From assembly GCA_041674765.1 (NCBI GenBank), contig JBAYVE010000003.1, forward strand, positions 66,040 through 130,039: a stretch of DNA of 64,000 nt. Reading direction: 5' to 3'. Below, piece after piece: positions 2,796 through 61,197 of the stretch; positions within the stretch are counted from its first letter, which is position 1; each line of letters begins with the position of its first letter. Position numbers and translations under genes: made by a program. The notes under the pieces were generated by a model. It was not told the DNA's origin, did not search any database, and saw nothing but the letters and a program-made list of their open reading frames with translations. Source of the DNA: Patescibacteria group bacterium (GTDB taxonomy: Bacteria; Patescibacteriota; UBA1384; XYA2-FULL-43-10; 1-14-0-10-43-13).

Positions 2796-3185
2796 TTACT
2801 CTTGAATGCCATCAATCGTTTCTCCGGATTTGACTCCCCCAATCAGCCCTCTTTCTCTGAGCTCCAACACTATGGCATTGAAGTAAGCAGGTCTGGTATG
2901 CCAAACATTCACGTCGCTCTCATTCACGCGGGAAATTAACTGATTATTTGAATCCTCGGAAAGGTGTAAATCACTACGCAATGTCTGGGATTGACGAATC
3001 AAACCAGGAGTTGTCTTTATCATACTTGCGAGCGATTTCAAAAGCTCCGCAATTTTCGAACTGTCCAAGTAAACTTTTGGTTCAACATCGACCGGCTTTT
3101 GAGTAGCAAATGCGAGACTAGAAAAGTCCCTATTATCATCGCTTGGAGTCTCAACTCTCGGCCGCAAAACAAATTTCTCATTCAT
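2796..3185 (-). CDS. Hypothetical protein, possibly with a C-terminal winged-helix.
   Basis: 129-aa ORF with no clear family; the C-terminus FNAIVLELRERGLIGG looks like a wHTH. Confidence 0.5.
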   Translation of the reverse strand: MNEKFVLRPRVETPSDDNRDFSSLAFATQKPVDVEPKVYLDSSKIAELLKSLASMIKTTPGLIRQSQTLRSDLHLSEDSNNQLISRVNESDVNVWHTRPAYFNAIVLELRERGLIGGVKSGETIDGIQE

Positions 3186-57237: not shown

Positions 57238-58623
57238 TCAAATCTTCGATAATGTGAAGCCGGACCTCATGTCCTTGACCTGATATCCCTTCTCCTTGAT
57301 CGTGTGCCGCAGTACATCAGCACGCGCCCAGTCCTTGGCTTGTCTGGCGGTCTCACGCTGATTTGCCAGCTCAATTACTTCCGCCGGTACCTCGTCCTCA
57401 TCTGCGAGCAAATCGAGCCCCAGCACTTCGTCATAGCGAGAAAACAAGGCAATCTTCGTCGCATTGCTCATCGATGAATCCACAGTCTCCTGCAAAAGCG
57501 CCGTGACCATCGGTGTGTTCAAGTCGTCGCTGATGTACCCGAGGAACGACTTCTCATACCGGTCAAAGGCAGCTTGGTTCAACGGCCCGTTATCAGATGA
57601 CTTGATCATAGCGATCTTTTCGCGGAGTCGCAGACGAGTGTTCCGAGCGGTCGTCATCGCGTTGTCCGAGAAGACGACTGGGTTGCGGTAAACAGAGCCA
57701 AGCAACATAAATCGGTAATCCATCGGCTCATATCCTGCTTCAACAAGGGACTTTATCGTCAGCAGATTACCTTCCGATTTACCCATCTTGGCGTTCTCGC
57801 CCAGAACGAGAAATGCATTGTGCATCCAGTAATTGACCCACTTGTGGCCAAAGGCTGCTTCGCTTTGAGCAATCTCGTTGGTGTGATGAACGGGGATGTG
57901 ATCAATACCACCAGTGTGAATATCGAAGTGCTCGCCCAGATACTTTGATGACATCGCTGAGCATTCGATATGCCAGCCCGGGAATCCACGACCCCATGGT
58001 GAATCCCACTCCATCGCGTGATTGGTGTACTTGTGTCGGGTAAACCACAGAACAAAATCGAAAGGTGACCGCTTGTTCGGATCGACCTCAACCCGGCTTT
58101 GGATCGCCTCAGGACTCAGGTTGAGGCGCGCCATCTTCCCATAATCAGGAAATGCCGAGGTGTCAAAATAGACGTTGCCTCCAGCCGTGTAAGTAAACCC
58201 ACGGCTCTCGAGCTGTACGATCATTTGGATCATTTCGGAGATGTGCTCAGTCGCCTTGCAGACGACATCGGGAGTGATAATATGAAGAGTTTCAGCATCG
58301 TGGAAGAAGGCGTCGGTGTAATATTGGGCAATTTCCCATACCGATTTACCTTCGCGACGCGCTCCTTTCTCCATCTTCTCTTCTCCTTTTTCCGAATCAT
58401 CCGCCAAATGACCCACATCGGTCAGATTCATGACGTGGCGCACTTCATAGCCGAGGGTTTGGAGAGTTCTCTTCAAGACATCCACAAATACATATGCCCG
58501 CAGATTTCCGATATGGGCATAGTCATAGACCGTGGGTCCACAGGAATACAGTCCGACAAAACTCTCGGTGATAGGGACAAAGGGCTCTTTCCCGTGTGTC
58601 AGAGTATTGGTAATATACAGCAT
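57238..58623 (-). CDS. cysS: Cysteinyl-tRNA synthetase. The start is taken at MLYITNT behind a GAAGGAGAAG ribosome-binding site; the track ORF extends 26 codons upstream. GC-rich.
   Basis: CGPTVYDYAHIGN (HIGH), KMGKSEGN (KMSKS), Zn-binding Cys and His. Confidence 0.9.
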   Translation of the reverse strand: MLYITNTLTHGKEPFVPITESFVGLYSCGPTVYDYAHIGNLRAYVFVDVLKRTLQTLGYEVRHVMNLTDVGHLADDSEKGEEKMEKGARREGKSVWEIAQYYTDAFFHDAETLHIITPDVVCKATEHISEMIQMIVQLESRGFTYTAGGNVYFDTSAFPDYGKMARLNLSPEAIQSRVEVDPNKRSPFDFVLWFTRHKYTNHAMEWDSPWGRGFPGWHIECSAMSSKYLGEHFDIHTGGIDHIPVHHTNEIAQSEAAFGHKWVNYWMHNAFLVLGENAKMGKSEGNLLTIKSLVEAGYEPMDYRFMLLGSVYRNPVVFSDNAMTTARNTRLRLREKIAMIKSSDNGPLNQAAFDRYEKSFLGYISDDLNTPMVTALLQETVDSSMSNATKIALFSRYDEVLGLDLLADEDEVPAEVIELANQRETARQAKDWARADVLRHTIKEKGYQVKDMRSGFTLSKI

Positions 58624-58730
58624 GCTCTTCTCCTTCAATTCAATCGACCAAGTTATCCACAATCTACAATTCTTTAATTTATTTGTCAACTTGTCAAGCA
58701 AGTCTTGTCTTCCATAAAAAATTTTGCTAC

Positions 58731-58805
58731 TATGAATTCAATGAAAGAATATTCTCAAAAAGTTTGTTGTTGCACTTTCTCGGCTCTCTCGGGTTTGTTT
58801 TGTTG
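58731..58805 (+). CDS. Candidate leader peptide MNSMKEYSQKVCCCTFSALSGLFC (24 aa) with three consecutive Cys codons, upstream of cysK.
   Basis: ORF read from the sequence: TGT TGT TGC at 58764-58772, stop TGA at 58803-58805. The ribosome-binding site is weak. Confidence 0.5.
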
Positions 58806-58839
58806 ATATTGAAAGTAATATTTTAAACAAGCAAAATAC

Positions 58840-58863
58840 GACTCGGGAAAACCGAGTTTTTTT
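58840..58863 (+). terminator. Intrinsic terminator or attenuator ACTCGG-GAAAA-CCGAGT-TTTTTTT, 25 nt before the cysK ribosome-binding site.
   Basis: Read from the sequence. Two upstream CTCGG copies (58778-58782 and 58787-58791) could pair with the 3' arm as an antiterminator. Confidence 0.55.
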
Positions 58864-58890
58864 ATTTTAGAGAAATAATTAGGAGATCAA

Positions 58891-59790
58891 ATGAAAAATA
58901 ATGTTTATGACAATGTTCTCGGGTTGATCGGAAATACACCGTTGGTAAAAGTAACTAAGTTTAACACGAACAAGAACGTCAGGATATATGCAAAACTCGA
59001 AGGGCAAAATCCTGGAGGATCGATCAAGGACCGCATCGGTCTTAAGATGATTGAGGATGCTGAGAAAAATGGCGAATTAACAAAAGATAAAATTATCATC
59101 GAGCCTACCTCCGGGAACACAGGCATCGGTTTGGCTATGGTAGCAGCAGTTAAAGGTTATAAAATTCAGATAACAATGAGTGCAGCAATGAGTGATGAAA
59201 GAAAGAAAGCTCTTCGAGCATTCGGAGCGGAACTTATCGAAACCGATCCGACTAAAGGAACCGATGGTGCAATCGTCAAAGCGCATGAATTGTTGGATAA
59301 AAATCCGAATACTTATTGGATGCCAAACCAATTCGAGAATGATAGCAATCCGCTAGCGCATTACGTCGGAACAGCAGAAGAAATAATCTCTCAAATGCCA
59401 AAAATAACTCATTTCATCGCTGGAATGGGCACTTCCGGCACATTGATGGGCGTATCAAAACGACTCAAAGAATATAATAGCAAAATAGAGATAATAGGCG
59501 TAGAACCGATTCTCGGACACAAGGTTGCAGGCCTGAAAAATATGCAAGAAGCAATTCAGCCAAAAATTTATAATGAGGCAGAGCTAAGTAGAAAAATTAA
59601 TGTAAATGATGAAAATGCTTATGAGACTTCTCGACAGCTCGCGCTGAAAGAAGGCATATTTGTGGGAATGAGCAGCGGGGCAGCCATGTTCGCCGCTCTG
59701 GAATTGGCGAACTCCCTTGAGAAAGGCAATATCGTCGTAATCCTACCCGATCGAGGCGATAGATACACAAGCACTAACTTATTTGGCTAG
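58891..59790 (+). CDS. cysK: Cysteine synthase (O-acetylserine sulfhydrylase).
   Basis: KLEGQNPGGSIKDRIG, a PLP-lysine motif, 299 aa. Confidence 0.92.
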   Translation: MKNNVYDNVLGLIGNTPLVKVTKFNTNKNVRIYAKLEGQNPGGSIKDRIGLKMIEDAEKNGELTKDKIIIEPTSGNTGIGLAMVAAVKGYKIQITMSAAMSDERKKALRAFGAELIETDPTKGTDGAIVKAHELLDKNPNTYWMPNQFENDSNPLAHYVGTAEEIISQMPKITHFIAGMGTSGTLMGVSKRLKEYNSKIEIIGVEPILGHKVAGLKNMQEAIQPKIYNEAELSRKINVNDENAYETSRQLALKEGIFVGMSSGAAMFAALELANSLEKGNIVVILPDRGDRYTSTNLFG

Positions 59791-59892
59791 CATTTACTTG
59801 CTTTATAAACTTATGTAATATTCTATTCAAGAACGAAAGTCAGAGACCTGACTAATTTTGCACAAGATGTGCCGTTCCTAAGGAAAAGCGCC

Positions 59893-61197
59893 ATGTCAGC
59901 CCAGACGCTCCTCCTCAAAGAGGTACTAAGGCGTGATGTACAGCCGGCATTAGGTTGTACCGAGCCTGTAGCAGTAGCACTCGCTTGCAGTGTTGCCGCG
60001 CAGGCTGCCCGTACTAGCGAAGTCATCGCAAAAGGTTCTCCGATTGAACATGTTTCAATCGTCGTTGACCCCGGAGTGATGAAAAACGGCAACGCCGTCG
60101 CCGTCCCGAACAGCTTTGGCAAGAAGGGCAACCTTATTGCTGCGGCGCTTGGCACAGTTTGCACTCACCCCGAACTGGGGCTCGAACTGCTGCAAGGAAC
60201 CGACGCTCAGGCCTTGGCTTCCGCCGAACATTTGCTTCGCAGTAACATGATTTCGCTCGTCTATGATGAAAATCAGACTTCCCTCTACATTCGAGCGACG
60301 GTAACAATCGGAGCCAATACAGCTATCGCCGTCATAAAAGACACCCACACGAACATCGCTTCAATTACCCTGAACGGGGTGCGGCTTGACAGCCAAGTGA
60401 CGGGTCAAACGGCGAGGGAAGAATCAACTCTTGACGGTCGACTTTCGTCATTGAGCATTACCGATCTCGTCCAGATAGCCAACAAAGCCGACAAAGACGA
60501 TATCTGCTACCTCCTTTCCGGTGCTGATATGAATTCAGCTCTTTCCACCGCCGGAATGTCTCTACAAAAGGTAGGACACCATCTCGAGACAATGCTGCTA
60601 AGTCGAACCATCGATGACGGACCGATCAATCGTGCAAAAATCGCCGTTGCGGCAGCTACAGATGCACGGATGGCCGGCATAGCACTTCCAGCCATGAGCA
60701 GTGGCGGCAGCGGAAATCAGGGAATAGTTGCGATTCTCGTCCCTTACCTGATGGGTAAATACTCGAACGTGCCAGACACTCAGATTGGGAAGAGCCTCGC
60801 ACTCTCCCACCTCGTCAACAGTTACGTCAAGTGCTTCACCGGAAAACTCTCCTCTATGTGTGGTTGCGCTGTTGCGGCGGGGGTCGGCGCATCTAGCGCA
60901 ATTGTCCTCCAAGAAAACGGTGACGCGCTAGTGGTCGGCAATGCCATCAACAACGTTCTTGCCAACATCGCCGGTGTCCTATGTGATGGGGCAAAGGGCG
61001 GTTGTGCACTCAAGGTGGCAAGTTCCGCCGAAACGGCGATCATGTCAGCCAATTTGGCACTCGGCGGCTATTCGCTTGGCGGTCCCGAGGGCATCATCGG
61101 CAAAACTGCCGATGAAACGATCGCCAACCTGGGCAAACTCGCTACAAGCTCTGATCCGGTTGTCAATCAGGAAGTCCTCTCCATCCTCGGACGGTAA
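59893..61197 (+). CDS. UPF0597/CyuA-like L-cysteine desulfidase family protein; GC-rich. The start is taken at MSAQT behind an AGGAAAAG ribosome-binding site.
   Basis: Conserved GCTEPVAVALA motif near the N-terminus, about 435 aa, Gly/Ala-rich. Confidence 0.65.
   Translation: MSAQTLLLKEVLRRDVQPALGCTEPVAVALACSVAAQAARTSEVIAKGSPIEHVSIVVDPGVMKNGNAVAVPNSFGKKGNLIAAALGTVCTHPELGLELLQGTDAQALASAEHLLRSNMISLVYDENQTSLYIRATVTIGANTAIAVIKDTHTNIASITLNGVRLDSQVTGQTAREESTLDGRLSSLSITDLVQIANKADKDDICYLLSGADMNSALSTAGMSLQKVGHHLETMLLSRTIDDGPINRAKIAVAAATDARMAGIALPAMSSGGSGNQGIVAILVPYLMGKYSNVPDTQIGKSLALSHLVNSYVKCFTGKLSSMCGCAVAAGVGASSAIVLQENGDALVVGNAINNVLANIAGVLCDGAKGGCALKVASSAETAIMSANLALGGYSLGGPEGIIGKTADETIANLGKLATSSDPVVNQEVLSILGR

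Follow-up and report, generated by a model that had tools for sequence, protein, structure and literature searches.

Classical attenuators, as described for trp, his, leu, thr, pheA, and ilv of Escherichia coli and Salmonella, have a short open reading frame (ORF) with tandem codons of the end product ahead of the regulated pathway gene. Their leader RNA pairs as 1:2, as a 2:3 antiterminator, or as a 3:4 terminator with a U-run, and the stop codon is placed to mask segment 2. The same arrangement is predicted upstream of cysK, a cysteine synthase gene in a 64,000-nucleotide stretch of contig JBAYVE010000003.1 from a Patescibacteria group bacterium (the whole stretch is called the window hereafter). 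This leader very probably represents four-segment transcription attenuation of the known type, tuned to cysteine and probably leaderless, before cysK, in bacteria of the candidate phyla radiation (CPR). It differs from the classical examples in its amino acid, cysteine, which is outside their set, and in a leader ORF that lacks a Shine-Dalgarno sequence and seemingly lies at the 5' end of the transcript. In addition, the host is an uncultured member of Patescibacteria (CPR), the 1:2 pairing is weak in the window, and the stop codon of many family members is adjoined by a second Cys run. The original prediction for this locus, made from the DNA letters, spoke of a classical cysK-type attenuator; however, the textbook set contains none, and leaders with Cys codons have been described only in Actinobacteria and, as a prediction, in Rhodobacterales.

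In Firmicutes, RNA control of cysS, cysE, and cysK is usually exerted by T-box leaders (RF00230). They resemble the cysK leader in sensing tRNA charging and in using a terminator/antiterminator switch before amino-acid genes; however, no T-box match is found in the leader, its length is about 120 nt as against roughly 220 nt, and sensing is proposed here to proceed through a translated ORF. In Mycobacterium smegmatis, leaderless polycysteine ORFs of the Ms5788A class are translational attenuators that unmask a Shine-Dalgarno sequence, and attenuation for cysteine mediated by an upstream ORF (uORF) was, according to the authors, previously undescribed (Canestrari et al. 2020, Mol Microbiol 114:93; 10.1101/834739). 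Leader peptides with Cys runs and without terminators had been predicted upstream of actinobacterial cys operons (Seliverstov 2005, PMC1262725). The Ms5788A class and the cysK leader share consecutive Cys codons in ORFs that are leaderless (putatively so here), a position before cysteine-biosynthesis genes, and, as proposed here, the sensing of Cys-tRNA through stalling. However, in the mycobacterial elements the Shine-Dalgarno region of the downstream gene base-pairs with the Cys tract and an intrinsic terminator is missing, whereas here the terminator and antiterminator are kept and the Shine-Dalgarno sequence is free; there is also no sequence relationship between the two. A second comparison is offered by uORFC-8-2 of Rhodobacterales cysS, a predicted attenuator with tandem Cys codons in a short uORF and a terminator stem with a U-run (Brewer et al. 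2021, PMC8632094). Both it and the cysK leader are predicted ribosome-mediated transcription attenuators with tandem Cys codons and a terminator, but uORFC-8-2 precedes cysS, is restricted to alpha-proteobacteria, and has its two Cys codons (14-15) inside the first stem. In the cysK leader, the Cys codons lie upstream of the stems and cysS is divergent and outside the transcript; the two systems are thus set apart by description. A full-text literature search combining Patescibacteria with 'leader peptide' and 'attenuat' found nothing.

It is proposed, with a probability of about 0.85, that cysK is controlled by its leader through ribosome-mediated (leader-peptide) transcription attenuation in response to charged tRNA-Cys. 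A cysteine-tuned, ribosome-stalling attenuator before cysK had been put forward in the original prediction, and it is supported by an alternative fold and by conservation in relatives. The downstream gene, a cysteine synthase of the CysK/M type, belongs to the pathway of the sensed amino acid. Transcription would begin at, or within one base of, the A of the ATG at 58741, and a ribosome would translate the 21-codon leader as RNA polymerase proceeds. When Cys-tRNA is scarce, the A site would stall on TGT-TGT-TGC (58765-58773); a ribosome reaches about 15 nt 3' of its P site, and on this basis region 1 would be covered to approximately 58784. Region 2 would then be free to pair with region 3, including the terminator 5' arm, and the 2:3 helix would keep CCGAG and the U-run unpaired so that the polymerase continues into cysK. 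When Cys-tRNA is plentiful, the ribosome would arrive at the TGA codon (58804-58806) and mask region 2, so that GACUCGG/CCGAGUU with its U7 would form and transcription would stop 27 nt before cysK. If no ribosome is present, a long hairpin (1:4 + 2:3) ending at the U-run might also terminate, which is a speculation by analogy with 'superattenuation'. The sequence features, the two mutually exclusive folds, and their conservation in relatives with altered stems are shown here; the transcription start, the translation of the short ORF, the stalling, the termination efficiency, and the response to cysteine are inferred.

Table 1. Features of the cysK leader and its flanking genes (positions in the window)
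Feature	Position	Strand	Basis or remark
cysS, cysteine--tRNA ligase, 461 aa	57238-58623	-	profile match and public gene call
Predicted sigma-70-type promoter	58705-58733	+	-35 TTGTCT 58705-58710, 17-nt spacer, -10 TACTAT 58728-58733
Longer ATG-ORF MNSMKEYSQKVCCCTFSALSGLFC, 24 codons, alternative start ATG	58732-58806	+	sequence
Leader short ORF MKEYSQKVCCCTFSALSGLFC, 21 codons, stop TGA	58741-58806	+	second ATG, probably leaderless
Cys codons TGT TGT TGC, codons 9-11, proposed stall site	58765-58773	+	sequence
Region 1, UCUCGG	58778-58783	+	weak partner of region 2; in the full-length fold, partner of the terminator 3' arm CCGAG
CTCGG copies	58779-58783 and 58788-58792	+	sequence
Region 2, antiterminator 5' strand, UCUCGGGUUUGUUUUGUU	58787-58804	+	folds; shuffles p = 0.0025-0.006
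Fourth Cys codon TGT	58801-58803	+	adjoins TGA stop 58804-58806
Region 3, antiterminator 3' strand, AGCAAAAUA-C-GACUCGGGA	58830-58848	+	contains terminator 5' arm GACUCGG 58840-58846
Intrinsic terminator, GACUCGG / GAAAA / CCGAGUU + U7	58840-58863	+	hairpin -10.0 kcal/mol
cysK Shine-Dalgarno AGGAG	58881-58885	+	5 nt ahead of ATG 58891
cysK, cysteine synthase CysK/CysM type, pyridoxal 5'-phosphate (PLP) enzyme, proposed regulated gene	58891-59790	+	TIGR01136, PF00291

All of the features listed in the original prediction are present, although most of its coordinates were one base off: the run of Cys codons had been placed at 58764-58772 and the CTCGG copies at 58778-58782 and 58787-58791 (see Table 1 for the correct positions). 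The hairpin with its U7 stands at 58840-58863 as proposed, with 7 pairs, four of them G-C, between GACTCGG and CCGAGTT (58852-58858) around the loop GAAAA (58847-58851). The T of 'CCGAGT', however, is the first of the seven T at 58857-58863 and not an extra one. The terminator lies between the leader ORF and cysK, and the 27 nt from its end to the cysK ATG leave no room for another promoter.

Folding from 58786, which mimics the Cys-stalled ribosome, gives the 58787-58804:58830-58848 helix at -20.8 kcal/mol (z = -4.0, 0 of 200 shuffles), and this helix leaves CCGAG and the U-run unpaired; the same helix is obtained when the terminator 3' arm is omitted. The full leader folds as a long hairpin of -31.8 kcal/mol (z = -2.6), in which CUCGG at 58779-58783 pairs with CCGAG at 58852-58856 outside the same 58787-58804:58830-58848 helix. 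The alternative fold on which the original prediction depended is thus found, in a somewhat different form. Pairing of the CTCGG copies with the terminator 3' arm had been suggested, and the first copy does so in the full-length fold, whereas the conserved antiterminator pairs with the 5' arm. According to these models, the leader has two mutually exclusive structures and the terminator 5' arm is the switch segment. Region 2 begins 13 nt after the Cys run and extends through the end of the short ORF, its C-terminal Cys codon included, so that its last base is the first of the stop codon. This spacing is compatible with a ribosome footprint of the usual size, by which a stalled ribosome would leave region 2 free and one at the stop codon would mask it.

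Relatives were collected by a CysK protein search (62-77% identity) and exact-protein look-ups, for which the contigs were fetched, and 160 more distant loci were added by CysK scans of public genome and metagenome contig collections. The scan of genome contigs gave relatives of up to 65% identity from many phyla and that of metagenome contigs up to 67%; the 70-77% relatives came from the protein search and look-ups and not from the collection scans. The closest cysK homologues (62-77%), which are mostly from Patescibacteria, show the same four-part design upstream: a short ORF with a Cys run, a segment just after the run, a segment pairing with the terminator 5' arm, and a terminator (Table 2). 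More distant cases are L103, L161, L055 (from a Clostridia metagenome-assembled genome, MAG), L101, L119, and L004. The Cys-run ORF, expected by the original prediction to recur in related genomes, is therefore conserved together with the terminator in different contexts, and the upstream neighbours of cysK vary among cysS, an acetyltransferase gene, proS, gcpE, and tRNA-Asn.

Table 2. Leader peptides upstream of cysK in the closest relatives
Locus	CysK identity	Leader peptide
L082	77%	MNNVSLSCCCSTLL
L083	72%	MEKAIITRANICCCTLAFISRVGCCCPN
L171	~70%	MNKVITTKVNICCCALVFISRVGCCCPN
L174	~70%	MKKSTIKKVNFCCCTLAFISRVGCCCLCS
L172	~70%	MNKAIIVKLNFCCSTLVFISRVGCCSLCS
L085	70%	MYKIVINKLNSCCQTLVFISRVGCCCPN
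L167	~70%	MRMTNNNSIPVCCCKSSIFLRVDYCRLK
L173	~70%	MIIRKRQIFDCCLLEHPNCCLRF
L087	67%	MNKTFLNKINSCCHSLNIRVQRRCCCR
L002	65%	MTKYIIKNLTFCCKGQNPRAFFWCC
L088	63%	MKSQTNPKITCCDCCTSLTEGVSFTNF
L003	62%	MVYQTKKTCCCCCCLISLRKRPV

Look-ups of seven further close relatives showed a Cys leader in six, and the seventh has cysK inside an operon. The leader is absent in L169/L170, a close relative with a 34-nt gap before cysK, which is the third gene of an operon after a PALP-enzyme gene and a gene for a PLP enzyme of Cys/Met metabolism. In L169 (1-2891), cysS is convergent and lies downstream of the cysK operon, and any leader would sit upstream of the first operon gene, beyond the fetched DNA.

The Cys runs of the relatives consist of 2-6 codons, with TGT and TGC mixed and always in frame between the ATG and the stop codon. 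Therefore, it is the meaning of the codons and not a nucleotide motif that is conserved. Short ORFs with three consecutive Cys codons (CCC) occur in 10 of 150 upstream regions as compared to none of their 150 reverse complements, and dinucleotide shuffling of the spacer between cysS and cysK produced an ATG-ORF containing CCC just 9 times in 20,000. In the long ORFs of the window, Cys makes up 0.77% of the residues. For specificity, the window and 165 related loci were scanned, each on both strands, for short ORFs that contain CCC or two CC runs and have a terminator within approximately 110 nt. All matches were directly upstream of cysK, and this site was the only one in the 64-kb window.

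The spacing is kept as well. The first Cys codon is codon 8-12 across the leaders, region 2 starts at nt 47-59, and the distance from the first Cys codon to the end of the U-run is 89-113 nt. A terminator (hairpin with 5-7 U) is present in all 15 tabulated leaders and in most of them ends 23-32 nt before cysK. When the 3' arm was omitted, the terminator 5' arm paired with a segment starting 10-20 nt past the Cys run in 10 of the 10 leaders folded. This 2:3 duplex was tested against 1000 dinucleotide shuffles of the segment upstream, and the best duplex was sought in the same way in real and shuffled sequences. It reached p <= 0.001 in five of ten loci, with a Fisher combined p of 2e-12; in the window, p was 0.09 for the short arm alone and 0.0025-0.006 for the extended arm or full helix. 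The 1:2 duplex has -8 to -14 kcal/mol in 9 of 14 relatives tabulated, for example -10.1 kcal/mol for ACUCUCG/CGAGAGU in L083 and -13.8 kcal/mol in L087, and weak values of about -4 to -6 kcal/mol apply to the window, L082, L167, L002, L003, and L161. The stems differ by subgroup while complementarity is kept (CUCGG; ACUCUCG/CGAGAGU; UCUCUU/AAGAGA; CCUCUU/AAGGGG; GCCAGG/CCUGGC), and within the closest subgroup the sequence varies in the hairpin loop and not in the stems.

A predicted sigma-70-type promoter precedes the short ORF, and TG at 58725-58726 occupies the TGn position of an extended -10. Its -10 hexamer ends 7 nt ahead of the second ATG (58741) and overlaps the first (58732), which is therefore the less likely start. 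The -10 ends 6-8 nt before the ATG of the short ORF in 10 of 19 leaders, the window included, and in most of the others the distance is only 11-14 nt. Near-consensus promoters are present in several relatives, such as TTGACA-17-TATAAT-6-ATG in L083. No Shine-Dalgarno sequence precedes either leader ATG of the window or any of the 19 leaders, whereas cysS and cysK each have one. Overall, the second ATG appears to be the better candidate for the functional start, and its ORF is somewhat more likely than not to be leaderless or nearly so. The 24-codon ORF of the original prediction does exist, from the first ATG, but a start at the second, giving 21 codons, is likelier. A genetic code in which UGA specifies an amino acid is unlikely, given that the standard code yields CysS and CysK at full length and that 4 of 31 long ORFs terminate in TGA.

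Several observations weigh against the attenuator. The leader promoter of the window is weak, with 8 of 12 consensus positions, and was not listed by a promoter scan. The minimum-energy hairpin of the full-length leader also ends at the U-run, and untranslated RNA may therefore terminate too. The core 2:3 pairing of the window leans on G-U pairs (p = 0.09 for the short arm alone), and its region 1:2 pairing, CUCGG/UCGGG with G-U pairs, has only -4.1 kcal/mol. A MAFFT alignment of 15 leaders left the stems out of register, so that no column-by-column covariation count was obtained, and shuffle tests of the best duplex were used for this reason. Lastly, a second Cys codon or run stands right before the stop codon in the window (...FC*), L002 (...WCC*), L083 (...CCCPN*, 1171-1179), and L087 (...CCCR*), and also in L171, L174, L085, and L161. 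Stalling at this second site would hide region 2 and promote termination, contrary to stalling at the first run, and the simple model offers no explanation for it.

Among the other explanations, translational attenuation of the mycobacterial kind, in which the Cys-rich short ORF would expose or hide the cysK ribosome-binding site, survives best, although it is very unlikely. The short ORF is Cys-rich and probably leaderless as in the Ms5788A class (10.1101/834739), and in L101 and L119 Cys-run short ORFs were found with no terminator detected. However, the hairpin and U-run are kept throughout the tabulated leaders, the centroid fold leaves the AGGAG of cysK (58881-58885) single-stranded, with no pairing to the Cys tract, and in several relatives there is no recognisable Shine-Dalgarno sequence that could be hidden. 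Sequestration of the Shine-Dalgarno sequence was not seen in the folds.

It is also improbable, to a slightly higher degree, that the ORF encodes a functional Cys-rich micropeptide (e.g. metal- or redox-active) and that the hairpin merely ends a small transcript or is a constitutive leaky terminator. The conserved position of the ORF would agree with a peptide function, and several versions have two Cys clusters (CCC...CCC) and resemble metal-binding peptides. Beyond the Cys runs, however, no peptide sequence is common to the subgroups, and the lengths range over 14-28 residues in the 15 leaders with terminators and 9-19 in three further short ORFs. The variation in the closest subgroup, confined to the loop while the stems are spared, also speaks against it, and a peptide function would leave the 2:3 pairing and the fixed site before cysK unexplained.

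A ligand-, protein-, or tRNA-binding RNA (a riboswitch, a T-box-like element, or a protein-dependent antiterminator) with an incidental ORF has an equally small chance. Riboswitches and T-boxes, too, use a terminator/antiterminator pair as their expression platform, and T-box leaders do exist in these genomes, since RF00230 was detected elsewhere in L083 (4574-4800, 127 bits) and L174 (2860-3086, 106 bits). These two T-boxes lie in the gap upstream of GNAT acetyltransferase genes on the same Patescibacteria contigs as the Cys leader, and their detection indicates that the Rfam search works. Nevertheless, the whole window gave no match at gathering scores, the leaders of 18 related loci remained unmatched at gathering scores by any family including the T-box, and 58500-59000 at E <= 10 gave only terminator look-alikes (SpF25, PsrR1, and Flavivirus 5'UTR, E 2.6-4.9) far under their cut-offs. 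Thus, no T-box or other family explains the region in the Rfam scan to which the original prediction had pointed, and the T-box and riboswitch readings of the leader were rejected. Furthermore, approximately 100 nt is too short for a T-box, no aptamer-like conserved core is visible in the MAFFT alignment of 15 leaders, and the sole sequence element shared across subgroups is the in-frame run of Cys codons with its synonymous TGT/TGC variation. Chance co-occurrence of a Cys-run ORF and a hairpin without function, in an AT-rich spacer where short ORFs and weak hairpins are common (a terminator scan gave 7 sites in 3.5 kb as compared to 3.0 expected), appears effectively refuted by the comparative data, since such an ORF is rare among the shuffles and more than 15 independent loci share the design, in each case before cysK and nowhere else.

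Returning to the cysteine-sensing transcription attenuator, two of the relatives extend its setting. In L003, from a Minisyncoccales MAG, a tRNA-Cys(GCA) gene (2916-2988) lies between the terminator of the Cys leader and cysK; the attenuator would control this gene as well, which fits a cysteine-supply regulon. In L055, the Clostridia MAG, the short ORF MKNSTFAIVNCCCNI (region 2838-3000) is apparently leaderless (TTGACA-17-TAGTAT-7-ATG). Between it and cysK there is an AT-rich hairpin of 11 bp, which has a large loop, and then a U8 run. An origin or a spread of the design outside Patescibacteria is thereby suggested. The more distant L090, L092, L096, L097, and L005 are without a Cys leader. 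They have a near-consensus promoter, TTGACC-17/18-TATAAT, within the last ~45 nt, which ends 5-6 nt before the cysK ATG, and cysK itself looks leaderless there.

Cysteine has long been missing among leader-peptide attenuators. The only Cys leaders studied by experiment, in mycobacteria, are translational and terminator-free, and a terminator-type Cys leader is otherwise only predicted, for Rhodobacterales cysS. Patescibacteria are hard to cultivate and their gene regulation is almost unknown. If the proposed mechanism is true, these bacteria couple transcription and translation, start translation on leaderless mRNAs, and tune cysteine synthesis to the charging of tRNA-Cys. It would also provide an annotation signature for cysteine-regulated genes in metagenomes, namely an ATG that opens the transcript, consecutive Cys codons at codons 8-12, and a terminator approximately 100 nt further on; no general concept is altered. 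A broader proposal is made tentatively, with a chance slightly short of even. The cysK leader and its relatives could form a family, undescribed so far and rather widespread in Patescibacteria (CPR), of leaderless transcription attenuators that sense cysteine, and at least one Clostridia MAG would hold look-alikes. This family would be the first evidence for ribosome-coupled attenuation and leaderless translation in the amino-acid sensing of Patescibacteria, whose genomes are reduced, and its two Cys sites, before segment 1 and next to the stop codon, might have opposite outcomes and give a sharper or two-threshold response.

The cysS and cysK genes are divergent. The original prediction gave the region between them as 189 nt, since it relied on the longest cysS ORF, which begins at a TTG (58701). 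The cysS profile match and the public gene call, however, start with an ATG (58623) that is equipped with a GGAG-type ribosome-binding site of its own, so that 267 nt (58624-58890) separate the two genes. Promoter-like sites for cysS are found on the - strand at 58697-58661, and cysS is not downstream of the attenuator. The cysK product matches TIGR01136 (cysKM) with 370 bits, which exceeds the cut-off, and PF00291. The CysK protein is identical to an NCBI entry for a cysteine synthase family protein from a Patescibacteria MAG, and the same locus is also present on a Logan contig of run SRR6484325. In the window, no tRNA genes and no second copy of the cysK-leader element were found.

A gene of the Trp-repressor family (PF01371, 106 aa), followed by genes of histidine biosynthesis (hisG, PRA-CH), is located near cysK in four relatives: directly 3' of cysK in L083 (2232-2552), L171 (2968-3288), and L172 (2978-3298), and with one gene in between in L167 (3711-4031). 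In the window, the gene after cysK (59893-61197, +) codes for a protein of 434 aa that belongs to the serine dehydratase alpha family (PF03313, 153 bits), has no NCBIfam match, and may be of the cysteine-desulfidase type. Co-transcription of this gene with cysK is uncertain because a palindromic hairpin without a clear U-run (59839-59854) separates the two. Its G+C content is about 53%, far above that of cysK. Between 54000 and 64000 of the window, the G+C content varies from 32% to 54% within a few kb, being near 50-54% in cysS and the genes past 60000 and 32-37% in a histidine-kinase gene and the spacer, which could reflect a mosaic origin or gene transfer.

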